From an uncultured Candidatus Saccharibacteria bacterium (GTDB taxonomy: Bacteria > Patescibacteriota > Minisyncoccia > Phycocordibacterales > GWA1-40-21): DNA of 59,097 nt. Below are positions 3,620 through 30,280 of the stretch, one piece after another. The stretch is taken from the NCBI GenBank assembly GCA_964485905.1, contig CAZAJY010000001.1:1-59097 (forward strand). The letters are read 5' to 3'. The notes below the pieces were generated by a model. That model searched no databases and was not told the DNA's origin. It was given only the letters and a program-made list of their open reading frames with translations. Position numbers and translations under genes: made by a program. Position 1 is the stretch's first letter, and every line of letters begins with the position of its first letter.

Positions 3620-4393
3620 TTATACCATAGTCAAAATTTCAGCACCATCTTTAGTGACGACAATAGTATGTTCAAAATGGGCGCTACGTTTACCATCAGC
3701 TGTCTTATAAGTCCAACCATCAGCATCTAATTTTATATGTTTTGATCCTTCATTCAACATCGGCTCCAGAGCCAGCACCATTCCAACCTTTAATCTCTCC
3801 CCCTTATCTTCTAAACAATAGTTGGGGACGTAGGGATCTTCATGAACTTTATAACCAACCCCATGTCCACATAATTCTTCTACAATTCCCAATCTTTTCG
3901 GCCGAACAAATCTTTCAATAGCATAACTAATATCCCGAATGTGTTTACCCTCTTTAATTGCTTTAATTCCGACCACTAAAGCCTGTTTTGTCGTTTCAAT
4001 TAAATTTTTTCCCACTTCATTTACTTCGCCCACCCCGACAGTAATAGCATGATCAGTAAAAAGTCCTCTATGTTCTAAGCCCATATCCAAAGAAACAATG
4101 TCACCATCTTTCAAAATCTTGGGTGATTCATTTGGTATGCCGTGAACAATTTCATCATTAATAGAAACACAAAGAGAGGCTGGATAGGGTCGCTTCATCC
4201 CTGCCGGTTTATAATTCAAAAAAGCGCTTTTATCTCCACCTTCCTCTACCAACTTTTGAGCTAAATCATTTAAATCAGAGGTAGAGATACCCGGCTTAAT
4301 GGCCTTAGCAATTTCACTCAAAATAAGGGCTAATCTCTTGCCCCCCTCCCTTAATATCTCTATTTCCTCTTTAGTCTTAATGGTTACGGACAT
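3620..4393 (-). CDS. map: methionine aminopeptidase type I
   Basis: 257 aa with the metal-ligand context DIVSLDMG, HGVGYKVHEDP, LEPM, FEHTIVVT. It sits after adk as in spc-alpha clusters. Confidence 0.9.
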   Translation of the reverse strand: MSVTIKTKEEIEILREGGKRLALILSEIAKAIKPGISTSDLNDLAQKLVEEGGDKSAFLNYKPAGMKRPYPASLCVSINDEIVHGIPNESPKILKDGDIVSLDMGLEHRGLFTDHAITVGVGEVNEVGKNLIETTKQALVVGIKAIKEGKHIRDISYAIERFVRPKRLGIVEELCGHGVGYKVHEDPYVPNYCLEDKGERLKVGMVLALEPMLNEGSKHIKLDADGWTYKTADGKRSAHFEHTIVVTKDGAEILTMV

Positions 4394-4434
4394 AGCATTA
4401 TAGTATAGTTTTTTGCTAAAATATCAAGTAAAAT

Positions 4435-4481
4435 ACAACCTCACCCCTAACCCCTCCCCTTGACTCATGGGAGGGGAAAAA
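4435..4481. repeat. GC-rich palindromic intergenic element, copy A (hairpin GGAGGGG/CCCCTCC type)
   Basis: Sequence acaacctcacccctaacccctccccttgactcatgggaggggaaaaag. It resembles the copies at 23568, 29128, 33697 and 43568. Confidence 0.7.
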
Positions 4482-4500
4482 GAAAAAACTATCCACATAA

Positions 4501-4550
4501 ACCCTCTCCTTTTCTAAGGAGAGGGTGGCATTCTGATGACGGGTGAGGTC
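4501..4550. repeat. GC-rich palindromic intergenic element, copy B (CTCTCC-ttttctaa-GGAGAG subtype)
   Basis: Contains ccctctccttttctaaggagaggg ... gggtgaggtc, nearly the same as the copy at 27319-27362. Confidence 0.7.
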
Positions 4551-4554
4551 ATAC

Positions 4555-5151
4555 TTACCGATTTAGGCCTAATTTAGCAAGGAGCTCGCTCTGGACCTCC
4601 TCAATCGACTGCTCACCATTTATTTCAATCACATTGTAATAGGGATCACTTTTATAATAATCTACCACCGGTAAAACATCAGTTTCATACCAAGCTAAGC
4701 GACGATTAATTGACTCAACCGTATCATCTTTTCTAGCGCGACCAACTAATCTTTTTTCTGCCCAATCACGACTAACATTTACGCAAATAACGTTTGGTTT
4801 TTCAATTTCAAAAAACCTTAGAGTATCATTCAAAAGTTGTGCTTCTCTTAATTTTCTTGGAGCACCATCAAAAACTAAATTCTCTACTCCTGTAAAACTC
4901 TGTGTTAAACGATTCATCCACAATGAGACAATCACGGCCTCAGGGGCTAGGATTCCGTTTTCAATGGCAAATTTGGTCTTCTTTTGAGTAAAAGTATCGC
5001 CAGGAGCAAACTCTCTAAGCAAGGTTCCACTTTCAATATGAATTGTCTGTAGGTCTGGGTTCTGTTTAGCCAGCTCATCAATTAATAATTTGACCTGTGT
5101 CCCCTTACCACATCCACTCCGTCCAAGAAAAATAAAAGTTTTGTTTTTCAT
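4555..5151 (-). CDS. adk: adenylate kinase (short, no Zn lid)
   Basis: P-loop GRSGCGKGTQ, then DGAPRKLREAQ and RKDD motifs. I chose the internal ATG at 5151 (MKNKTFIFLG) because the longer ORF overlaps the rplE 3' end. Confidence 0.8.
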   Translation of the reverse strand: MKNKTFIFLGRSGCGKGTQVKLLIDELAKQNPDLQTIHIESGTLLREFAPGDTFTQKKTKFAIENGILAPEAVIVSLWMNRLTQSFTGVENLVFDGAPRKLREAQLLNDTLRFFEIEKPNVICVNVSRDWAEKRLVGRARKDDTVESINRRLAWYETDVLPVVDYYKSDPYYNVIEINGEQSIEEVQSELLAKLGLNR

Positions 5152-20484: not shown

Positions 20485-21327
20485 TTAAATGATCTCCAAA
20501 CTTTTTCCATCAGATTCGAATTTGATCATCCCTCCACCTAAAGTCTGGAGGATTTTTTCTTGAAATTGAGTAAAGATATCCAGCGCTTCCTGATTAGGAT
20601 GACCATATCTATTATTCAAACCAGCCGAGATAACCACAAAATCAGGAGAAACCGTACCAACAAATAATTCGGCGTTAGAAGTCTTGGATCCATGATGCCC
20701 GGCCTTCAGGACATCACTATCTAAAAGATCTCCGTACTTCCCCACCAAGTATTTTTCAATAATCTGTGGCGAATCGCCAGTTAAAAGAAAAGAATTTTCG
20801 CCGTAAATTAATTTACCAACAATGGAAGATTCATTGGTTTCCCAACCGGCCGTATCTTGAGTTGGAAATAAAATATCAAATTCGGTGGCTGGTCCCAGGG
20901 TTAGGACTTCCGGCGAAATGATTACTTCCGTCTGAATATTCTTTTCTTTAATTAAATTCATTAATTCAGTGTAAACATCCGAAGAAGAAGTGGTATTGGT
21001 TAAAATAAATAAACTGACCTTAAATCTTTTTAGCACTTCTACCAAACCACCGATATGATCCTGGTCAGCGTGGGTGGCTAAAACCACATCAATGGACCGA
21101 TCATAAAATGGCATCACCTTTCCCAGCTCGCGTAAAACGCTATTATTAGCTCCGCCATCAATCAGCATCTGCCGACCACCGGGTGCTTTAATAAAAATTG
21201 CATCACCCTGCCCTACATCCAAAAAAGCGACAGTTAATTTTGGATTACTAATATGAAAAAGGCAAGAAAAGAGAAAAACATTTAGAATTAACAAAAATAG
21301 GAGAAAATAAAATTTAAATTTTTTCAT
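20485..21327 (-). CDS. ComEC/Rec2-type metallo-beta-lactamase domain protein (separate ORF)
   Basis: 280 aa with a signal/TM N-terminus. Contains DVGQGDA, HADQDHIGG and AGHHGS motifs. Confidence 0.8.
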   Translation of the reverse strand: MKKFKFYFLLFLLILNVFLFSCLFHISNPKLTVAFLDVGQGDAIFIKAPGGRQMLIDGGANNSVLRELGKVMPFYDRSIDVVLATHADQDHIGGLVEVLKRFKVSLFILTNTTSSSDVYTELMNLIKEKNIQTEVIISPEVLTLGPATEFDILFPTQDTAGWETNESSIVGKLIYGENSFLLTGDSPQIIEKYLVGKYGDLLDSDVLKAGHHGSKTSNAELFVGTVSPDFVVISAGLNNRYGHPNQEALDIFTQFQEKILQTLGGGMIKFESDGKSLEII

Positions 21328-22786
21328 ATTTTTTCGAATTATAATGCGCTCGCCAAATTATAACAAAAAGGATTATATAGACGAGGACCATCAAAAATAG
21401 CGGAAAATTTTTAAAGCCGATTGAAGATAAAGGTAAATGAGAGAAAAGATAAATTATCCTTAAGACATAGGATAATAATAGAGAACAAATAAAAGCGACC
21501 GGAGCGCCGAGTGGAACAAAAATAAAGGCCAGTAATCCGGCTAAGAAACCAAGAAACATTATGATCGGAATAACGGGTAAAATTAAAACGTTTGTCGGTA
21601 AGGCAAAAATAGACAATAACCCCATCTTATAAATGATAAATGGTAAAACAAATATCTGAGTAGAAACTGTGGCCACAATTAATTCTCTCAATTTATATTT
21701 GGGTGTAATAAAATATAATCTTTTTTCGATTAAGGGTGAAACCCAGATTAAAGCGATAGTGGCTAAAAAAGATAATTGAAAGGAAATATCAAAAACCAAA
21801 ATTTTTGGATTTTGAATTAACATAAAAACTCCCGCTAAAAGCAAAGCGCGACTAACGTCATATTTTCGCTGAGTCGTCTTGGCTAATAAAACCAATAAGG
21901 CCATAATGGACGCTCGCATGACGGTCGCAGAAGCACCAGTCATGATAGCAAAAGCCAGAATACCAAAAACACCAAAAGATAGGGCTAGAACTCTCGGCAA
22001 AAAAGATAAAACAATCATAATTCCATCAGCAATAATAGTAATATTATAGCCAGACAAAGCGACAATATGAGAGACGCCAGCCAGACGGAAATCATTTTGT
22101 AATTCTTTGCCCAAAGAATTTTTGGCCCCCAAGATTAAACCGTTTAACAAAGCTGACTCTGGTTCTTTAATTAATAAATTTATTTTACCAATAAAAGCAT
22201 TTTTAAATGTGAACAATTTATTTTTGATGAAGGAGCCATGACCGGAGGAAATTATCTTGGCTTGAGCAAAACTAATTTGATAAAAAATATCATCCTTAGC
22301 TAAAAAACCAATATAATCAAAATCTTTGTCAGTGTCAGTAGAAAAATTTTCAGGTTTCTCTAGTTTTCCTTCAGCTGAAATAAAATCCCCATATTTAAAT
22401 TCCGGGAATAAGCCGGCGGTTACTAAAACTTTTTCATTATGGCTAAGAACAACTAATTGAGTACTTTGATCTTTAATACTTGGCTCAGCCACAATTATTC
22501 CCTCGAGAACTATTTTCTCACCAACTAAATTAGTAAAAAAACTATTTTCATTTCTTAGATCTTTTATTTCATAGCGCAAAATTCCCAGAGCCGAGGCTAA
22601 AATAAAAACAGCCGTCAAGATGATGATGACTTTTTGGGATGCAAAAAATCGACCCCAGATGAAAATCAGGAAAGACAGAAATAACAAGAAAAGGAAGAAA
22701 GAAAAACCGAGCTTAAGAAAAGAACTGACAAAAATACCAAGACTAAAACCAGCGACCAAACAATAAAAAATTTTATTGTTGGTCAT
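21314..22786 (-). CDS. comEC: ComEC/Rec2 competence channel (polytopic membrane) domain protein
   Basis: 490 aa, many TM segments, an OB-like N-terminal part then the competence-domain pattern. It overlaps the downstream MBL ORF by 14 nt. Confidence 0.75.
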   Translation of the reverse strand: MTNNKIFYCLVAGFSLGIFVSSFLKLGFSFFLFLLFLSFLIFIWGRFFASQKVIIILTAVFILASALGILRYEIKDLRNENSFFTNLVGEKIVLEGIIVAEPSIKDQSTQLVVLSHNEKVLVTAGLFPEFKYGDFISAEGKLEKPENFSTDTDKDFDYIGFLAKDDIFYQISFAQAKIISSGHGSFIKNKLFTFKNAFIGKINLLIKEPESALLNGLILGAKNSLGKELQNDFRLAGVSHIVALSGYNITIIADGIMIVLSFLPRVLALSFGVFGILAFAIMTGASATVMRASIMALLVLLAKTTQRKYDVSRALLLAGVFMLIQNPKILVFDISFQLSFLATIALIWVSPLIEKRLYFITPKYKLRELIVATVSTQIFVLPFIIYKMGLLSIFALPTNVLILPVIPIIMFLGFLAGLLAFIFVPLGAPVAFICSLLLSYVLRIIYLFSHLPLSSIGFKNFPLFLMVLVYIILFVIIWRAHYNSKKYEKI

Positions 22787-23546
22787 ACTCTCCCCAATTT
22801 CTTATAATTTCTTGCTCATCCTCGGGAGAAATCGCCTTTTTATATTTAACATTCTTCACCCCCTTCACTCTTTGTTCGCATTCCGGCCAAGTGGCGTCAC
22901 GATAAATAATATTATTAATCAAACTTAAATAACAGTAGGCCTTAGCTTTGGAAGAAGTCTTTTTTACTTTCTTTTTATCTTCTTGCCCTAAATTTAAAAT
23001 ATCTAATTTATAACTCTCTATATTTCCTTTAAACAATTTAACTTTTTCTCCAGTCGCTAGATCCGAAGCAATTTCATCACAACGCTCATTCCCCACAATT
23101 CCGATATGACCGCCAACATATTCCCAATTAATTTTTCTTGACCGATCATTCTTATGATTTAGGCCTGCCAAATCTGCAAGTTTCTTCCACAAGTCCTGAT
23201 TTAAAACTTCTTCTGGTTTTTTATGAGGGTCATTTGAGGCCTTTTTCCAATTATTTTTCTGCCAACCATAAACCCATTTAGTAATTCCGTTTATTAAATA
23301 GCTAGAATCAGTATAAATTAAAATATCTCCTTTTTCCTTTTTTATTTTTTCTAAGGCTTTTATCGCGCCCATCAATTCCATCCGATTATTAGTTGTATGT
23401 TTCTCACTTCCGCCCAATTCTAGGATTTTTTCTCCGTCACCCTTCGATAGAACCTCAGGGTAAACAATCACCGCGCCATAACCCCCCGGCCCCGGATTCC
23501 CCTTCGACGCCCCATCTGTAAAAATTATTATTTTATTTTCTATCAT
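22773..23546 (-). CDS. rnhA: ribonuclease HI fused to a C-terminal hybrid-binding (Cauli_VI/HBD-like) domain
   Basis: RNase H core (IFTDGASKGNPGPGGYG, NNRMEL, YTDSSY, HIGIVGNERCDE). The C-terminus TWPECEQRVKGVKNVKYKKAISPEDE resembles the RNase H1 HBD motif TWxEC...V.G....(F/Y)KKF. Start taken at MIENKI. Confidence 0.8.
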   Translation of the reverse strand: MIENKIIIFTDGASKGNPGPGGYGAVIVYPEVLSKGDGEKILELGGSEKHTTNNRMELMGAIKALEKIKKEKGDILIYTDSSYLINGITKWVYGWQKNNWKKASNDPHKKPEEVLNQDLWKKLADLAGLNHKNDRSRKINWEYVGGHIGIVGNERCDEIASDLATGEKVKLFKGNIESYKLDILNLGQEDKKKVKKTSSKAKAYCYLSLINNIIYRDATWPECEQRVKGVKNVKYKKAISPEDEQEIIRNWGEYDQQ

Positions 23547-23567
23547 AAAAAAGATTATATCACAAAA

Positions 23568-23610
23568 CACAACCGCCCCTAACCCCTCCTTGACTAAGGA
23601 GGGGAAGAAA
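23568..23610. repeat. GC-rich palindromic intergenic element, copy C
   Basis: cacaaccgcccctaacccctccttgactaaggaggggaagaaa. It borders the low-coordinate edge of the DGR cassette. Confidence 0.7.
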
Positions 23611-23621
23611 CAAAATAAAAA

Positions 23622-23720
23622 ATGACCCCCCGATCCACCCCATTCGTTTGCACGAATGAAATGTATCGGAGGGTCAGAGGATCAAAGTTTCAAAGAATCA
23701 AGAGCAGAGATTCAGATAAA
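23622..23720 (-). repeat. 99-nt conserved 3' flank of VR1, including a terminator-like hairpin (23624-23675)
   Basis: Identical in 99 of 99 nt to 26337-26435. In the minus sense the hairpin is GACCCTCCGAT...CATTCG-tgcaaa-CGAATG...ATCGGGGGGTC followed by a T-rich run. Confidence 0.85.
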
Positions 23721-24341
23721 CTACAGTTGCGGAACGACGATCCGACGCCCGTACCCGGCACCCCAGACAAAGTCGTTGGACAAACGGCGCACGCGCACCT
23801 CGAGCCGGCCAACGTACCAGAACACATGGGCGACGAAAAACTCGTCGCCCTTCTTCAATAAGAAGAAGTTGGCACTACCATTCTGAATGAGCAGGTCAGG
23901 GCGATTCTCCACCACCCAGAGGACTTGCTCGTCAGTCAGGACCAACTTGTTCAGGTCCGCGCTGTAGGCGGTGAAGAAATCGTTGAATCTGCCGTTCTTG
24001 GCCAGTTCCAACGATTCCACCAGACAGGCGGGCTTAACTTTATCATTGGCTCCGATATTCCAGTTGCGGAAATCGGTGTCAAGGTAACCGGTGAAGAGGA
24101 TCTTCATCGAACTGATAGTCCTCTTGCCAGTCGTGGCCGGGATGGTGGCCAAAAGACCGAGGCGACGGAAGTAGCCGACAATCATCTTCGTGCGGTTTTT
24201 CACCGCTTCCACGAAGAGACTGATGGCCTCCACCGTATTTTGTATCACCCACTGACCATCCTCGGTCGTGAACGACGCAAAACCATCCTGATGCTCCACC
24301 AACCGTGCTGCTATTACCGGAATCTGTGGTTCAGTAGCCAT
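23721..24341 (-). CDS. DGR variable target protein 1 (small, no obvious signal peptide)
   Basis: The C-terminal 40 aa are encoded by VR1. It is a paralog of the 26436-27107 ORF. Start taken at MATEPQ (24341), preceded by GGAGAG; the ORF extends to 24401. Confidence 0.85.
   Translation of the reverse strand: MATEPQIPVIAARLVEHQDGFASFTTEDGQWVIQNTVEAISLFVEAVKNRTKMIVGYFRRLGLLATIPATTGKRTISSMKILFTGYLDTDFRNWNIGANDKVKPACLVESLELAKNGRFNDFFTAYSADLNKLVLTDEQVLWVVENRPDLLIQNGSANFFLLKKGDEFFVAHVFWYVGRLEVRVRRLSNDFVWGAGYGRRIVVPQL
23724..23842 (-). repeat. DGR variable repeat VR1
   Basis: 119 nt colinear with the TR. There are 16 differences, all where the TR sense strand has A (T on the plus strand), and 0 at the other 92 positions. 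Confidence 0.9.
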
Positions 24342-24399
24342 TTTGGCTCTCCTGTTTTTACAGATCTTCACCCACTGTCTCAAAACGTTATGTTTTGCC

Positions 24400-24439
24400 A
24401 CAGCTTTTAATATATTTTAATAAACACACTAAAAGCTGT
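24400..24439 (-). promoter_or_regulatory. conserved 5'-leader hairpin of target 1 (10-bp stem ACAGCTTTTA/TAAAAGCTGT, 20-nt AT loop)
   Basis: A homologous hairpin with a similar loop lies upstream of target 2 at 27204-27251. Confidence 0.55.
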
Positions 24440-24489
24440 AGCAAAACTTCTATTCCGCACTTATATCAAATATCTACTTTCTACCTCCT

Positions 24490-24518
24490 ATTATACACCT
24501 ACTGAACTTTTTTGTCAA
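24490..24518 (-). promoter_or_regulatory. consensus sigma70-type promoter for target 1 (TTGACA-17-TATAAT)
   Basis: The minus strand reads gcTTGACAaaaaagttcagtaggtgTATAATagg. Confidence 0.7.
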
Positions 24519-24568
24519 GCACAAAAAATGCACAAATTTTATTCTCAAATAAAGGCCTATTTATAAGA

Positions 24569-25564
24569 CTATTTTATAGTTTTCTGATTTAAGACTATAA
24601 TTTTAATTTTCTTTTGTAATTGCTTAGCGTTACCATGTTTTAATAAACCTAAATAGGAATTTACCACTTCTTTTTTCATATTAACCGCTAGATTTCTGAA
24701 CATCCTTCTCTTGGTGGCTGTTCTCAATACTCGATGATTAATAAAATGCACCCAACCTAAAAAATCCACGCCAGAAGCAAAAGTCTTAATGTATACTTTA
24801 TCGGGATGCAAATTTAATTTCAACTTTATCTGAAGAAAATTATCAACCAGTATTAGTAAGGATTCCAGATATTTCTTTTTATCACTTAATATCACGAAAT
24901 CATCAGCATATCTGACATAATATTTTACTTTAAGAATATGCTTCAGATATTGATCAAATTCATTTAAATAAATATTTACTAACAATTGTGAAGTTAAGTT
25001 ACCCAATGGTAATCCCTTCCCTTTTTGCGTACTATTAAAACTTTCCACCACTTTTTCTATCAGCCATAAAGTATCTGTATCTATATTGTGCCTTTTTATC
25101 ACTGTATATAAAATTTGATGATCAATAGAAGCAAAAAATTTCCGAATATCACACTTCAAGGCCCAGAGTGTTCGGCTGTGATTAAAAGAAGCTTTCCAAC
25201 CAAAATGTCTGAGACGATTCATGGCCCGATGTGTTCCTTTCATATTCCGACAAGAATAAGAATCCCCAATAAATCTGGTGTCAAAATACGAATATAAAAT
25301 CCTATAAATAGCACGGTGGAGTAGTCTGTCTCGAACTTTAGCTTTATGAATAATTCTCGGTTTAGGATCATTAATAGAAAATTGTTCATAATTTCCATGT
25401 TTATAAGTCTTATTTTTTAAATCTAAATAAAGATCATAAATATTTTTAGATAAAAAAATCAAAAAATTGCCGACGTCTTGCTTGTTTTTCTTATCACAAA
25501 TAAATTCCCGCCAGGCCAGGTGTAGATTTTCCAAAGATATGATATATTTATAATTATGATTCAT
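24569..25564 (-). CDS. DGR reverse transcriptase
   Basis: RT motifs including GLPLGNLTSQLLVNIYL (the DGR-typical xGNLTSQ) and YVRYADDF (YADD). No maturase, endonuclease or retron-like extras. Start taken at MNHNYKYIISLENL (25564); the ORF extends to 25615. Confidence 0.9.
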   Translation of the reverse strand: MNHNYKYIISLENLHLAWREFICDKKNKQDVGNFLIFLSKNIYDLYLDLKNKTYKHGNYEQFSINDPKPRIIHKAKVRDRLLHRAIYRILYSYFDTRFIGDSYSCRNMKGTHRAMNRLRHFGWKASFNHSRTLWALKCDIRKFFASIDHQILYTVIKRHNIDTDTLWLIEKVVESFNSTQKGKGLPLGNLTSQLLVNIYLNEFDQYLKHILKVKYYVRYADDFVILSDKKKYLESLLILVDNFLQIKLKLNLHPDKVYIKTFASGVDFLGWVHFINHRVLRTATKRRMFRNLAVNMKKEVVNSYLGLLKHGNAKQLQKKIKIIVLNQKTIK

Positions 25565-25957
25565 AAGCAAGATAAAGTTACATTTCAATATGAGACACCA
25601 AAAGTCCTTATCCAAGAAAAAGAACTATACCGCCTTTGGCTGACAATTCATAGGGATTTTCCAAAAGTGGAGAGATTAGGTATTGGCCAGAAAATAGAAC
25701 AATCCTTCTTGACTGTCTTAGAACTTACCTTCGCCTCGGTTTATTTAGTAGCTGAAAGTAAAATACTGATGTTAAATAAAACAATCGCTAAACTAGATAA
25801 TTTAAAATTTTTTATGCAACTAGCTTGGGAAAACCAACTGATACCAACAGAAAAATATTCAGAGATAGCTGGAAAACTTGAAGAAATCGGTCGTGGGCTT
25901 GGCGGTTGGAAAAAGGGTTTGCAAAAAAGTTTGGAACAAAAAACTCCCGCCAAATAG
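25556..25957 (+). CDS. avd: Avd-like accessory variability determinant (four-helix-bundle family)
   Basis: 133 aa. The helical pattern FPKVERLGIGQKIEQSFLTVLE...IAKLDNLKFFMQLAWENQLI...EEIGRGLGGW is typical of the 23S-IVS/Avd family. It lies next to the TR and RT but on the opposite strand. Confidence 0.75.
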   Translation: MIHKQDKVTFQYETPKVLIQEKELYRLWLTIHRDFPKVERLGIGQKIEQSFLTVLELTFASVYLVAESKILMLNKTIAKLDNLKFFMQLAWENQLIPTEKYSEIAGKLEEIGRGLGGWKKGLQKSLEQKTPAK

Positions 25958-25964
25958 ACGGGAG
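25938..25964 (-). terminator. terminator-like hairpin plus U6 immediately 3' of the TR (minus sense), overlapping the avd stop codon
   Basis: The minus strand reads CTCCCG-tctatttgg-CGGGAG followed by TTTTTT. Confidence 0.5.
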
Positions 25965-25972
25965 AAAATTTG

Positions 25973-26091
25973 CAGTTTCGGAACGACGATCCGATGCCCG
26001 TACCCGGCATCCCAGACATTGTCGTTGGACAAACGGTTCACGTTCACCTTGAGCCGGCCATCGTACCAGTTCACATTGGCGACGAAAATTT
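25973..26091 (-). repeat. DGR template repeat (TR)
   Basis: Noncoding copy of the VR with 27 adenines in the sense strand, several in AAC/AAT codons. Its conceptual translation is FVANVNWYDGRLKVNVNRLSNDNVWDAGYGHRIVVPKL. Confidence 0.9.
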
Positions 26092-26336
26092 GTGCTATCA
26101 ATCATCTAGCTCACCACCTGCCAAATCATGACAGATTGAATAGTATTTGAGACCTAAAAGTCTCTATAATTGATAGCACCAACTGTTAATATTTTTTGAA
26201 GGATATTTTTCTACACGCTTGCGTAAGGCGTACCCAACGCAATTCTGATATTAAATATCCTAAAATAATGACAGAAAAGCCTTGACCGTTCTGTAACACA
26301 TCATTCCAAAATTAGTATAGCAGATTTAAAATGAAA

Positions 26337-26435
26337 ATGACCCCCCGATCCACCCCATTCGTTTGCACGAATGAAATGTATCGGAGGGTCAGAGGATCAA
26401 AGTTTCAAAGAATCAAGAGCAGAGATTCAGATAAA
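26337..26435 (-). repeat. 99-nt conserved 3' flank of VR2, including a terminator-like hairpin
   Basis: Identical to 23622-23720. Confidence 0.85.
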
Positions 26436-27107
26436 CTACAGTTGCGGAACGACGAGCCGATGCCCGTACCCGGCATCCCAGACAGTGCCGTGGGACAAAC
26501 GGCGCACGTACACCAGGAGCCGGCCAGCGTACCAGTACACATCGGCGACGAAAAACTCGCCCTTACCTTGCAACTTCTCCTTGAACAGGAAGAAGGTGCC
26601 GTAGCCATCCGTTCGAAGCCACTTACTATGATCCTTCACGAAACGGATGATCTGGCTTTGCGTCAGGCACAAACTCTCCCGACTCCGGCCGAAGCCATCG
26701 TAGATCTGAGCAAAAGTCCCGTCCTTGACTAGCTCCAGAACCTCTACCCTCGTCTTCTTCGTCGGCTGACCCGGGATATTTATCCCGTAGTTCACGAAAT
26801 CACCGTCAATGTAGCCCGGGAAGATGTCCTTGGCTTCAGCAATCGTCGCCCGACCATTCGTCGCTCCGATGATCACCTTCTTGCCTTTGGACAACGATCG
26901 ACAGTAGCCCACTACCGGTTTCGGCTTGAGTACAAGCTCTCCTCGACCGAGAGTGAGCAAGGCCATATCGTTGGCCAACACTGGGTCACTCACGATCTTC
27001 GTGGCGTCAGAATCTGTTCCACCACTGTCCACAACCGCGTGAACATAGGCCTGCCCAATCTGAGCTAATGTCATTCCTTTTTCCGCCAACTCGCTTTTAC
27101 CACTCAT
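26436..27107 (-). CDS. DGR variable target protein 2 (paralog of target 1)
   Basis: 223 aa whose C-terminus is encoded by VR2. It shares VGY..., F.GY.D.DF.N and FFVA...WY.GRL motifs with target 1. A purine-rich RBS precedes the ATG. Confidence 0.85.
   Translation of the reverse strand: MSGKSELAEKGMTLAQIGQAYVHAVVDSGGTDSDATKIVSDPVLANDMALLTLGRGELVLKPKPVVGYCRSLSKGKKVIIGATNGRATIAEAKDIFPGYIDGDFVNYGINIPGQPTKKTRVEVLELVKDGTFAQIYDGFGRSRESLCLTQSQIIRFVKDHSKWLRTDGYGTFFLFKEKLQGKGEFFVADVYWYAGRLLVYVRRLSHGTVWDAGYGHRLVVPQL
26439..26557 (-). repeat. DGR variable repeat VR2
   Basis: 119 nt colinear with the TR. There are 15 differences, all at TR adenines, and 0 elsewhere. Confidence 0.9.
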
Positions 27108-27203
27108 CTCTTTCTTCTCCCTGTGGCCTGCCTAGTATAATACTTTGGCCTACCACCTTGCTTGTTGGCGATTATCGCCTTTTCGACTTCACCTATTTGG
27201 TTT

Positions 27204-27251
27204 AGTCACAGCTTTTAATAAATTAAATTAAACATACTAAAAGCTGTGACT
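27204..27251 (-). promoter_or_regulatory. conserved 5'-leader hairpin of target 2 (14-bp perfect stem, 20-nt AT loop)
   Basis: agtcacagctttta ... taaaagctgtgact. It is homologous to 24400-24439. Confidence 0.55.
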
Positions 27252-27288
27252 AATTCCGCATTTTTTAATGTCCTACTTTCTACCCCAT

Positions 27289-27317
27289 ATTATACACCCA
27301 AGCATTTTAAAAGTCAA
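27289..27317 (-). promoter_or_regulatory. near-consensus sigma70-type promoter for target 2 (TTGACT-17-TATAAT)
   Basis: The minus strand reads ccaTTGACTtttaaaatgcttgggtgTATAATatg. Confidence 0.7.
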
Positions 27318-27318
27318 T

Positions 27319-27362
27319 GGCAACCAATTTCCCCCTCGCCTTTTCTAAGGAGAGGGGTTGGG
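27319..27362. repeat. GC-rich palindromic element, copy D (overlaps the recJ 3' end)
   Basis: ttccccctcgccttttctaaggagaggggttgggggtgaggtcc. The recJ ORF reads through it (...DLTPNPSP*). Confidence 0.7.
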
Positions 27363-29114
27363 GGTGAGGTCCACTATCCTTAATCTCAACTCTTTTCGTC
27401 CCGCAAAAAAGGATAATTCAAGATTGGCCAATAAATTTATTTTATTCCCCTCTTTTAATTCCCCTTGATCTCGAAAGAAGCCAATCGCCTTAATGTTTAC
27501 ATTCTGAGAATTTTTAAAAGTTAGTTCTAAATGATTATTTTCTTTCCCAAACATTTTAATTTTTTCAATCATTACTTTTTCAAATAAAAATAATGGTTTA
27601 GGATTTCCTGTTCCAAAAGGAGCTAATTTTTCTATCAATTTATAGTTCGCCGATGTAACTTCGTCTAAAATTAATTTTAGATCTGACTCCACCAGACAAG
27701 GCGAGGCTTTTGGAGTACCAAAGGCCTCGCCTTGTCTTTCAACTTTTTCATAGGCCTGTTGTAATTTTTCCTCTAATAGATGGACTTTTTCTTCGATCAC
27801 CGAAAAGCCCCCGGACATTTGATGACCACCAAATTCTTGGAGAATTCCCGGTTCCACTTGTTGCATCAAATCTAAAACACTCATACAGCCATCTCCGCGA
27901 CAAGACCCCTTTAAAATATTTCCACCGTCTCGTCCCCACAAAAAAACTGGCCGATTATGATCATCCACCAGAGAATTAGCCACCAAACCCAGTAAAGATG
28001 GCTTCCAATCGGGGTTACCGATAACAATCACCTTCTTTTCCAAAGCCCCTTTGCACTGAGCTTTGTCGAGAGGGTTATCATCATAACGCTTCTTCATTAT
28101 CTTTCTAACTTCTTTAACTAAACTGGCGACAATTCCTTTTCTTTCATTATTAATTTTATCTAAATGTCGAGCATGGAGATCAGCTTCCACTTCGTCTTGA
28201 GCAATAAAAAGTTTAAAAGCGTCGTCAGGACTCCCCATTCTAGAAGCCGCATTAATTCTGGGCGAAATAGAAAAAACGATATCATCTTCCGTAATGTTTC
28301 TTTGATCTATTTTTAATAAAGAAAATAATTTCAATAGACCGACGCGAGGCGATTTCCGCAAAACTTTTAAACCGTAATAGGCCAGGGCGCGATTCTCGCC
28401 TACCAAAGGCACCATGTCCGACAAAGTCGCAATCCCCACCATATCTAAGAGCCACTTTTCCCAGCCTAAAGGAACAGAAATTTCCTCGGAGCGATTAGTC
28501 TGCGTTAAGCGTAGAGGATTTTTTTGTTCCTTTAGGCTGATTAGTATCGCCTGCACTAATTTATAGGCCACACCAGCGCCACATAAATCTTTAAAGGGAT
28601 ATTGTGAGTCCTCTCTTTTGGCATCAACTACCGCTACGGCTTCAGGTAAACCAGCCTGCGCAGGTAAATGATGATCGGTTATAATTAAATCAATTTTATG
28701 TTTTTTAATTTCCTCCGCTTCAACTAAATCAGTAATGCCACAGTCCACCGTAATAATTAATTTAACTTTATCTTTCTTAAATTGGTCAATGGCTTCATGA
28801 TTCAAACCAAAACCTTCATCATGGCGATGTGGAATATAATTAGTAAAATTCTCATGACCGATTTTCTGAAAAAAATCATACAAAATAACTCCGCCGGGAA
28901 TACCATCGGCATCATAATCACTAAAAATCACAACTCGTTCTTTTTTTTCTACGGCCTGTAGAATTCGCCCCACCGCCTTATCCATATCGGGCAAAAGAAA
29001 TGGGTCGTGCAAATCCTGCTCATAATCCGGATTCAAAAAATCCTCGGCTTCTTCGACGGTTTTAATACCTCTTTTCTCTAACAGGGTCTTCAAAAGCGGT
29101 GGGTATTTATCCAT
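27345..29114 (-). CDS. recJ: single-stranded-DNA-specific exonuclease RecJ
   Basis: DHH family motifs (IFSDYDADGI, TVDCG, ITDHH) and a DHHA1-like GGHQMSGG. Start taken at MDKYPP; the ORF extends to 29138. Confidence 0.88.
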   Translation of the reverse strand: MDKYPPLLKTLLEKRGIKTVEEAEDFLNPDYEQDLHDPFLLPDMDKAVGRILQAVEKKERVVIFSDYDADGIPGGVILYDFFQKIGHENFTNYIPHRHDEGFGLNHEAIDQFKKDKVKLIITVDCGITDLVEAEEIKKHKIDLIITDHHLPAQAGLPEAVAVVDAKREDSQYPFKDLCGAGVAYKLVQAILISLKEQKNPLRLTQTNRSEEISVPLGWEKWLLDMVGIATLSDMVPLVGENRALAYYGLKVLRKSPRVGLLKLFSLLKIDQRNITEDDIVFSISPRINAASRMGSPDDAFKLFIAQDEVEADLHARHLDKINNERKGIVASLVKEVRKIMKKRYDDNPLDKAQCKGALEKKVIVIGNPDWKPSLLGLVANSLVDDHNRPVFLWGRDGGNILKGSCRGDGCMSVLDLMQQVEPGILQEFGGHQMSGGFSVIEEKVHLLEEKLQQAYEKVERQGEAFGTPKASPCLVESDLKLILDEVTSANYKLIEKLAPFGTGNPKPLFLFEKVMIEKIKMFGKENNHLELTFKNSQNVNIKAIGFFRDQGELKEGNKINLLANLELSFFAGRKELRLRIVDLTPNPSP

Positions 29115-29127
29115 TAGCTGATTATAA

Positions 29128-29171
29128 CACAACCTCACCTAGCCTCTCCTTGACTAAGGAGAGGAAGAGGG
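29128..29171. repeat. GC-rich palindromic element, copy E
   Basis: cacaacctcacctagcctctccttgactaaggagaggaagaggg, between recJ and the HIT gene. Confidence 0.7.
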
Positions 29172-29196
29172 AGAATAAATATGTTATTATATAATT

Positions 29197-29526
29197 ATGA
29201 AGGATAAAGATTGTATATTTTGTAAGATTATAAAAAAAGAAATTCCGGCTCAGATCTTATTTGAAAATGAGAACCTTATTGTAATACAAGATATAAAACC
29301 GGCGGCCCCCTTTCATCATTTAATCATCCCCAAAAAACATATAAAATCTATTATGGATCTAGAGGATATAGATAAAGAAATTACTTCCGAACTTATCTTT
29401 GTGGCAAAAGAAGACGCAAAAAAGACAGGTCTTAAGGGATACCGTTTAAGTTTTAATGTCGGCCGTGAGGGTGGGCAAATGATTGATCACATACATTTGC
29501 ATTTGATGGGGGGGTGGTTTAAATGA
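29197..29526 (+). CDS. HIT (histidine triad) family protein
   Basis: 109 aa with the HIHLHLMGG triad motif. Confidence 0.88.
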   Translation: MKDKDCIFCKIIKKEIPAQILFENENLIVIQDIKPAAPFHHLIIPKKHIKSIMDLEDIDKEITSELIFVAKEDAKKTGLKGYRLSFNVGREGGQMIDHIHLHLMGGWFK

Positions 29527-30280
29527 TTTCTACTATTTTTAATAATTCCCCAAACTTTTTCGGATTCAAACTTTCATGACCAACTAACAGTCCTTGTACT
29601 TCACCAGAAGTAATAATATCATTAGCGTTTTTATAACTAACCGAACCACCATAAAGTATCGGCACTTTAATTACTGAATCTTTTTTATAGATCTCCACCA
29701 AAACTTTTTTAATAAATAATGTGGTCTCATGGATATCCGCTGATTTCATTGCCTTATCCTCAGTTTTACCAATAGCCCAAATTGGTTCATAGGCAATCAC
29801 CAATTTATTTAAATATCTCTTCTGTAATTTACCCAAAGAATTTATAATCTGCGCTCGTAGAAAGTGTAGATAATTTCCGTGTTCATCTCTCTCTTTTTCC
29901 CCCACGCATAAAATTGGTCGCAGACCAGCCTTAATAGAAGAAATTATCTTTTTAGCAATCATCTCATCATTTTCACCCAATTCTCGTCTTTCCGAATGTC
30001 CGATAATGACATAACTTTCGCCTTTTAACATTCTAGTACCGATTTCTCCAGTAAAAGAACCTGTCTTCTCCCAAAAAACGTCCTGAGCTCCTAAAATAAC
30101 AGATTTATCAACCAATTTTTCCAAATCATTCAAATAAATATAGGGTGGACAAACTATTACTTTAGTATTTTTTAAAATCTTAGTAATCTTTTTTGTCTCT
30201 AAAAAAATTTTCTTAGCTTTCTCTAAGCTCTCTGGATTCATCTTCCAATTTGCTATGACTAATATCTTATTTTTCATCAT
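29519..30280 (-). CDS. tpiA: triosephosphate isomerase
   Basis: ANWKMN, GHSERR and YEPIWAIG motifs. Confidence 0.9.
   Translation of the reverse strand: MMKNKILVIANWKMNPESLEKAKKIFLETKKITKILKNTKVIVCPPYIYLNDLEKLVDKSVILGAQDVFWEKTGSFTGEIGTRMLKGESYVIIGHSERRELGENDEMIAKKIISSIKAGLRPILCVGEKERDEHGNYLHFLRAQIINSLGKLQKRYLNKLVIAYEPIWAIGKTEDKAMKSADIHETTLFIKKVLVEIYKKDSVIKVPILYGGSVSYKNANDIITSGEVQGLLVGHESLNPKKFGELLKIVEII

Follow-up and report, generated by a model that had tools for sequence, protein, structure and literature searches.

The two small proteins T1 and T2, encoded at positions 23721–24341 and 26436–27107 of contig CAZAJY010000001.1 from an uncultured Candidatus Saccharibacteria bacterium (assembly GCA_964485905.1), appear to be members of a large family of small soluble variable proteins that is essentially restricted to candidate phyla radiation (CPR) bacteria and is diversified by diversity-generating retroelements (DGRs). 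We put the probability of this reading at about 0.62. All coordinates refer to the window, i.e. the 59,097-nucleotide stretch of this contig that was analysed, unless a locus of another genome is named.

The neighbouring DGR, which consists of a reverse transcriptase (RT), the accessory protein Avd and a template repeat (TR), provides adenine-mutagenized copies of a 116-nt template, and these copies replace the 3′ ends of both T1 and T2. The two targets have in common an end that resembles an initiation of mutagenic homology (IMH) sequence and a 3′ hairpin, and DGRs of this kind in other genomes also rewrite remote target copies in trans. Some 14 codons can be diversified; six of them would point to one face of a β-hairpin, while the others belong to the loop behind it and to the beginning of the last strand. 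The resulting variable face, in which Tyr, Asp, Arg, Gly and Ser abound, would bind a ligand, probably a protein, and would do so inside the cell. Each target gene would constitute a unit of its own, comprising a consensus promoter, a hairpin in the 5′ untranslated region (UTR), the coding sequence and the 3′ hairpin.

A retroelement and its two targets

The 116-nt TR, the RT and Avd form a canonical DGR that is placed between the paralogous target genes. Read along the minus strand, the order is T2 (27107–26436), TR (~26088–25973), RT (25615–24569) and T1 (24341–23721), with Avd (25556–25957) as the sole component of the DGR region on the plus strand, divergent from the RT gene and convergent with the TR. 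RVT_1 recognises the RT (E = 1.2e-23), whose true start is likely an internal Met near 25561 and whose translation contains LGNLTSQ and YADD, motifs that are marks of DGR RTs. Avd is matched by bAvd of Pfam (PF22296, E = 2.1e-12) and by DivGenRetAVD of NCBIfam (NF033474, E = 4.6e-15), the latter at 55.8 bits and hence under the curated 80-bit cut-off. T1 (206 aa) starts with an ATG that has AGGAG upstream; an alternative GTG at 24401, which would give 226 aa, falls within a conserved hairpin. T2 has 223 aa.

The TR (25973–26088, minus strand) encodes FVANVNWYDGRLKVNVNRLSNDNVWDAGYGHRIVVPKL and holds 21 mutable adenines in 14 codons, giving a repertoire of ~2.4×10^12 possible proteins. Its counterparts in the targets are the variable repeats (VRs) VR1 (23724–23839) and VR2 (26439–26554), both on the minus strand. 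In an ungapped alignment of TR, VR1 and VR2 (columns 23–138), differences within the repeat occupy 25 columns, and the TR has an adenine in every one of them. VR1 departs from the TR by 13 substitutions, all at TR adenines, and by a fixed difference at 23729; VR2 departs by 12, again all at TR adenines, and by a fixed difference at 26444. The fixed difference lies close to the 3′ end; apart from adenine sites, VR1 and VR2 agree with the TR throughout the repeat. The adenine-templated variable positions of VR1 run from 23741 to 23828, and its last ~17 nt (GTCGTTCCGCAACTG) are invariant and IMH-like.

The designation of T1 and T2 as DGR targets, made in the original prediction from the letters of the DNA, is thus upheld, with RT, Avd, TR and adenine-confined VR differences all found. 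The RT is of DGR type, Avd adjoins it, the VR lies at the 3′ end of the target open reading frame (ORF), the IMH is unlike its template counterpart (IMH*), and a hairpin follows downstream.

The same prediction pointed to three TR positions (25978; 26037–38; 26089–90) at which both VRs carry the same substitution, and it offered three causes: selection, boundary differences (IMH versus IMH*) or a shared ancestry of the VRs. All three substitutions are indeed present. At 25978 the TR has AAA (Lys) and the VRs have CAA (Gln), and because the same hexamer difference (CCGAAA in the TR, CCGCAA in the VR) recurs in other genomes, in 23 of 38 TR/VR pairs (25 of them if two variant VR hexamers are included), it can be read as a lineage-wide fixed IMH*/IMH difference instead of a product of mutagenesis, as had been suggested; the Gln encoded at this site is more than 90% conserved across the target family. 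Positions 26089–90 are found where the homology between TR and VR stops on the 5′ side. The third change, from AAC to CGC at 26037–38 in both VRs, fits chance: eight adenines are mutated in both VRs, and the same base appears at three of them, with 2.7 expected by chance. Shared ancestry or gene conversion was therefore rejected in favour of the IMH/IMH* difference, the boundary and chance.

Related genomes tell the same story. A scan of one genome per species yielded 79 loci with family members, in 33 of which an RT, and in 38 of which Avd, lies within 6 kb; the order target, TR, Avd (on the opposite strand) and RT is kept in about 33 related loci, and in 40 of 88 cases a TR accompanies the target within its locus. 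In 38 TR/VR pairs from these related genomes, 405 mismatches were counted in the core, and 391 of them fall on TR adenines (198 A to G, 130 A to T and 63 A to C). Target copies that lack a nearby DGR are diversified nonetheless, in trans: the remote copies L011 and L051 differ from the TRs of the same metagenome-assembled genome (MAG), found in loci L010 and L016, essentially only at TR adenines (the single non-A mismatch of L011 is near the IMH). At hypervariable positions, NNY codons make up 96.5% in TR-linked copies and ~87% in remote copies, compared with 57% at constant positions.

A catalogued but uncharacterised family and its fold

Over 182 aa, T1 and T2 share 41% identity (E = 7e-40), in agreement with the paralogy proposed for them; the scattered motifs and the W.AGYG.R.VVPQL ending listed as common to the two are present in both, and both are short, as had been said. 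Neither they nor the other members of the family have a match in Pfam, NCBIfam, PHROGs, PADLOC or PDB sequences, and the statement that the N-terminal part fits no family holds for these same collections. The PADLOC defence models likewise gave nothing for Avd and only generic RT matches for the RT. Two weak candidates were discarded: ‘Gp15’ (9m8o), found at E = 0.06 in the PDB sequence search, disappeared with a deeper profile and was taken as chance, and POTRA_2 was matched by 8 of 136 family members only at E values of at least 0.04, without a POTRA match from Foldseek.

An exhaustive profile search retrieved 2,577 cluster representatives, mostly of 200–240 aa, with E ≤ 1e-3, of which 1,034 reach E ≤ 1e-30, and a word-index search retrieved 391 relatives, all of ~210–240 aa and without a Pfam domain. 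Nearly all of the 79 loci belong to Paceibacterota/Parcubacteria-type MAGs, and three to Chthoniobacterales/Verrucomicrobia MAGs; among 2.9 million viral contigs (IMG/VR) there were two matches. On phage contig L080 (also L081), a 222-aa member at 4292–4960 is located between methyltransferase genes and terminase/portal genes, outside any tail module. When the 951 ORFs of the 79 loci were clustered, RT and Avd were the only conserved neighbours, and no partner gene emerged.

The long relatives are tandem repeats of one ~150-aa module and contain no added Pfam domains. Proteins with two or three tandem copies include P0121 (560 aa), P0122 (476 aa) and P0124 (360 aa), in which each copy has a VVPQL-like end. 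At the other extreme is a 160-aa domain-only homolog from the Chthoniobacterales/Verrucomicrobia MAGs (L062, 6001–6498; L063, 5986–6468; L064, 1109–1573). Since both tandem copies and a domain-only form exist, the C-terminal domain is autonomous. The Verrucomicrobia-type copies have neither a nearby DGR nor a GC excess, and at the ‘variable’ positions L063 and L064 have the same residues (AYFGRRLRLK), from which L062 departs once; this homolog looks like a frozen, possibly transferred copy. The L063 gene adjoins those for a heavy-metal P-type ATPase and a MerR-type regulator.

The family has been catalogued before but is uncharacterised. DGR targets on LBQD01000003.1 and LBYE01000042.1 are listed as ‘REF_DGR ... 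misc’ (Roux et al. 2021, Supplementary Data 8, PMC8144416), and they are homologous to T1 and T2, with the motifs of the family present from end to end. Wu et al. (2018) left these CPR VRs ungrouped because no fold could be assigned, and they gave neither a family definition nor a function (PMC5758913). Like T1 and T2, their ‘misc’ targets are DGR-linked proteins of ~220 aa from Parcubacteria-type genomes, with IDSDF.NWG, LCLTQ.QI, TFFLFK, FFVA.V and an RxVxPQL ending; nothing essential differs, and T1 and T2 are two more members. Of two other ‘misc’ CPR targets compared by hhalign, that of AMFJ01005865.1 gave P = 8.7e-4 (probability 23%) and the other gave nothing, which hints at most at a wider superfamily. 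The CPR clade-2 targets are known typically to lack transmembrane (TM) or other conserved domains, and their genuine non-membrane status ‘remains to be established’ (Roux et al. 2021, PMC8144416). Because members are already listed as ‘misc’, and because signal-less CPR targets are a published question, the novelty claimed in the original prediction was overstated. Roux et al. treated the clade-2 DGRs as a class in aggregate, whereas the present analysis concerns one family, with a predicted structure, trans targets and cis elements. What is new is the family-level definition, a confident structural model without a detectable neighbour, evidence for multi-copy repertoires diversified in trans, and the cis-element and GC findings presented below.

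AlphaFold2 was applied to full-length T2 with 57 relatives and to the T1 domain (T1 residues 57–206) with 136 relatives. The T2 model has a predicted local distance difference test score (pLDDT) of 84.9, mostly above 90 for residues 70–223 and 55–75 for the N-terminal helices, and the T1 domain model has a pLDDT of 95.3 and a predicted template modelling score of 0.90. The protein accordingly has two parts, a variable and poorly predicted N-terminal helical segment of ~60 aa and a C-terminal α/β domain of ~150 aa. To our knowledge, all solved structures of DGR variable proteins have the fold of C-type lectins (CLec). Foldseek searches with the two models returned nothing significant from the PDB (best E 0.28 with the T2 model and 0.36 with that of the T1 domain, template modelling scores below 0.3) or from BFVD (best E 0.19). 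The top PDB matches are unrelated α+β structures (NTF2-like designs, XLF, cystatin, and PAS/GAF domains), and no CLec, formylglycine-generating enzyme (FGE) or lectin structure is among the matches listed. No FGE-sulfatase, DUF1566, Lectin_C or other CLec family of Pfam was matched at E ≤ 1 by T1, T2 or any of the 136 members, and profile searches of PDB sequences gave no match. Neither sequence similarity nor three-dimensional similarity thus places the domain among the CLec proteins, and the kinship once seen between the G(Y)G.R.VV ending and the GFR ending of CLec VRs finds no backing in either the Pfam search or the Foldseek matches.

By DSSP, the elements of the T2 model follow one another as β119–126, α132–137, α150–159, β171–179, β182–193, β196–203 and β217–221, an order compatible with the β1-α1-α2-β2-β3-β4-β5 of CLec proteins, and it is the invariant IMH that codes for the last strand (R-x-V-V-P-Q-L). 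Since the comparison covers the order of the elements and not the pairing of strands (β1 with β5 in CLec proteins), we word the predicted fold as ‘not detectably CLec’ rather than as ‘new’.

Comparison with characterised variable proteins reveals both likeness and difference. Mtd of Bordetella phage BPP-1 is a virion tail-fibre protein, and TvpA of Treponema denticola is a surface lipoprotein. T1 and T2 share with them a C-terminal VR, ~12–14 variable residues mostly at AAY codons, an IMH-encoded last strand, an invariant scaffold interleaved with the variable residues and a repertoire of 10^12–10^13. Mtd and TvpA, however, have recognisable FGE-sulfatase/CLec similarity, whereas T1 and T2 have no CLec match by hidden Markov model (HMM) or Foldseek; T1 and T2 also have no signal, their domain is much smaller and free of inserts, and their variable residues occupy the face of a regular β-hairpin. 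AvpA of Nanoarchaeota (PMC5006420) is similar in being a small (256 aa), monomeric, single-domain protein of an ultrasmall ‘dark matter’ organism, with 12 variable residues and a fold that could not be predicted in silico. It differs in its solved CLec fold with large inserts and in its internal VR, which is followed by 46 residues, and it has no sequence relation to the T1/T2 family.

The domain could be a CLec too divergent for Foldseek and HMMs, i.e. an ordinary, compact CLec DGR target, and to this we assign a substantial chance, if short of an even one. Both models have the element order of the CLec core, with a VR that starts in β3 as in TvpA and Mtd and with a last strand that is encoded by the IMH as is β5 of Mtd, TvpA and AvpA (PMC5006420); moreover, uncharacterised CPR VR domains have been predicted to be new CLec variants (Roux et al., PMC8144416). 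Set against this are two independent high-confidence models without any CLec, FGE or lectin among the top Foldseek matches, the negative Pfam and PDB-sequence searches, and variable residues that occupy regular strand faces in alternation with core residues.

The variable face and its place of action

Sequence entropy across the family peaks at T2 residues 189, 191, 193, 194, 198, 200, 202, 206, 208, 211 and 214. These residues coincide with adenine-containing TR codons and alternate with the near-invariant F186, V187, A188, V190, L197, V199, V201, V209 and W210. In both models DSSP assigns a two-residue turn between the VR strands, and because this turn sets the strand register (pairs 193–196, 191–198 and 189–200), residues 189, 191, 193, 198, 200 and 202 are expected on one side, opposite the hydrophobic core. 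The remaining variable codons belong to the loop after the hairpin and to the start of the last strand. The idea, already contained in the original prediction, that the variable residues might cluster in one surface patch is consequently supported by sequence and DSSP as regards one face of the β-hairpin plus the following loop, while the contiguity of the patch depends on the strand register.

The residues most frequent at the variable sites are Tyr (170), Asp (129), Arg (103), Gly (71) and Ser (65), with Asn also among the dominant ones. Protein-binding paratopes typically have such a composition, which also mirrors the bias towards A-to-G and A-to-T changes. We infer that the variable face is a ligand-binding surface, probably a protein-binding one.

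As had been predicted, classical export signals are absent from T1 and T2: a hydropathy heuristic detected no signal peptide, lipobox or TM segment, and the maximal Kyte–Doolittle mean over 19 residues is 0.95–0.98. About 98% of 254 members likewise have no N-terminal hydrophobic region or lipobox. Because so large a share of the family is devoid of Sec, lipoprotein and TM signals, a cytoplasmic location is the most economical reading, one that we hold at somewhat better than even odds. Of the ‘cytoplasmic ligand-binding family’ originally proposed, the lack of signals is borne out by hydropathy, and the word ‘cytoplasmic’ is read from that lack.

Several points weigh against the reading of T1 and T2 as non-CLec, soluble, intracellular binding proteins. 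The missing Foldseek match falls short of proving a new fold, and a β-α-α-β-β-β-β order with an IMH-encoded last strand is what a stripped-down CLec core would be expected to look like in a model; divergent CLec variants such as AvpA indeed evade in-silico detection (PMC5006420). The contiguous patch is deduced from the strand register, which does not place loop residues 206–218. Localisation is judged from hydropathy heuristics, and non-classical export would be possible. One member, P0234 (203 aa), has a lipoprotein-like N-terminal signal (MTISTSKRKLVLGMVLGC...), so that at least one lineage may export the domain. Finally, no ligand, partner or conserved neighbour was found.

One rival possibility is that the targets are exported or surface adhesins with which episymbiotic CPR cells bind to changing host or particle surfaces, leaving the cell by a non-classical route or by means of the N-terminal helices. 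For most of the DGR targets that have been characterised, the site of action is the surface of a cell or virion, and CPR bacteria are enriched in DGRs (PMC8144416). The signal of P0234, the hydrophobic N-termini of P0149 and P0094 (also among the 254 members) and strong promoters, which suggest an abundant protein, point in the same direction. We nevertheless regard surface display as unlikely, given the ~98% of members without a hydrophobic N-terminus or lipobox, the lack of any secretion, pilus or sortase gene conserved beside the targets (951 ORFs, 79 loci), and a phage-borne homolog that sits between methyltransferase genes and terminase, not in a tail module.

A further alternative keeps the proteins inside the cell and makes them pre-diversified sensors of phage or plasmid proteins in a kind of innate-like immunity, with D101, D103, E125, Q150, Q152, K176 and R217 as a constant output or partner site. 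It is compatible with several copies per genome, diversified in trans, with an antibody-like Tyr/Asp/Arg/Gly/Ser face, with the absence of export signals and with a conserved polar set away from the VR, and a role of DGRs in immunity has been put forward (PMC10053308). Yet no effector domain, conserved partner gene or PADLOC match accompanies the targets, and the idea is purely inferential; we consider it decidedly improbable.

Target genes as self-contained units

Upstream of T1 is a sigma-70-type promoter (24490–24518, minus strand; TTGACA-17-TATAAT) that matches the consensus at 12 of 12 positions, and upstream of T2 is another (27289–27317, minus strand; TTGACT-17-TATAAT) that does so at 11 of 12. 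Promoters with at least 10 of 12 matches, 27–45 nt upstream of the 5′-UTR hairpin, were found in 24 of 29 related loci, as opposed to 2% of control windows. The target genes are probably independent, strongly transcribed units. The hairpin itself, 58 nt long, occupies 24391–24448 before T1 (z = −7.0; 64.2 bits with covariance model R1) and 27199–27256 before T2 (z = −6.5; 64.1 bits), in both cases on the minus strand. It has the core CAYAGC...GCURUG and covariation in 13 of 22 pairs, and it corresponds to no Rfam family. With model R1, the hairpin was detected directly upstream of a target in ~36 sources and almost exclusively before family members; the sense strand always scores above the antisense strand, and G-U pairs occur on the sense strand only.

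About 45 nt after the T1 stop codon is a second hairpin (23623–23676, minus strand; z = −5.9) with ~24 bp and the inner loop GCAA, followed by a T-run. An identical copy, again with a T-run, follows T2 at the same distance from the stop codon (26338–26391, minus strand), and the 3′ flanks of the two genes, this hairpin included, are 94% identical over 226 nt. It is likely a terminator, a DGR target-recognition hairpin or both. A third, terminator-like hairpin with a T-run (25944–25964, minus strand) lies directly 3′ of the TR and is convergent with avd; its stem shows compensatory changes in the TR 3′ flanks of L010, L016 and L038 (CTCCCG/CGGGAG, CTCTCA/TGAGAG and CTCCCA/TGGGAG). Because it immediately follows the TR, the TR RNA seems to end there and to be a transcript separate from that of the RT.

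Other features near the locus were also recorded. The gene directly downstream of T1 (22773–23570, minus strand) encodes an RNase H whose C-terminus has a Cauli_VI-like motif, and it is not kept as a DGR neighbour in other loci. A candidate Rfam RT-9 RNA just 5′ of the TR (26181–26296, minus strand) reached 27.4 bits against a gathering threshold of 46.1 (E = 0.19) and is not claimed; 11 related DGR loci had no RT-9 match at that threshold. A LOOT RNA (RF03000, 75.9 bits) is present in the related Paceibacterota locus L014 (3850–3971, plus strand), just downstream of the DGR RT.

The two target genes also differ from their surroundings in composition. Over their whole length they have a GC content of 0.54–0.55 and a GC content at third codon positions (GC3) of 0.67–0.71, compared with a GC3 of 0.28–0.35 in neighbouring genes, RT and Avd among them (20485–30280). 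Across 67 loci of the family, the GC3 of targets exceeds that of neighbours by +0.20 on average and, in 52 of these loci, by more than 0.1; remote copies show the offset as well. The excess might stem from horizontal transfer of cassettes, from biased gene conversion between paralogs or from selection. Taken together with the portable promoter-hairpin-gene-hairpin unit and with the frozen, non-diversified copies in Verrucomicrobia-type MAGs, this excess might suggest that T1 and T2 are encoded by mobile cassettes which arrived recently and are associated with the DGR only incidentally or in a decaying way. Such an explanation is very improbable: because VR1 and VR2 match the TR perfectly except at adenines, recent rewriting is implied, and the target-TR-Avd-RT order kept in ~33 loci and the NNY signature of remote copies likewise speak against it.

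The reading of T1 and T2 as small soluble DGR variable proteins bears on two questions that remain open (PMC8144416), namely whether the targets of CPR bacteria really are non-membrane proteins and whether the VR domains of these targets represent new folds. With a large, compact (150-aa domain), confidently modelled and easily expressed family at hand, both become directly testable. A small scaffold that displays ~10^12 natural variants on the face of a β-sheet is, in addition, of interest to protein engineers, and the GC anomaly, together with the conserved promoter and the 5′-UTR hairpin, suggests unrecognised rules by which DGR target genes are maintained and expressed.

For the biology of CPR bacteria we offer a broader and quite tentative proposal, which we think more doubtful than probable. 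These cells may keep a multi-copy, strongly expressed cytoplasmic repertoire of binding proteins on a compact non-CLec α/β scaffold, used for intracellular recognition of, e.g., phage or host-derived molecules and encoded by a portable cassette (promoter, hairpin, GC-rich gene, IMH, hairpin) that one DGR can serve in trans. If this is true, the non-CLec scaffold would be a third natural scaffold for hypervariation, besides those of immunoglobulins and C-type lectins.

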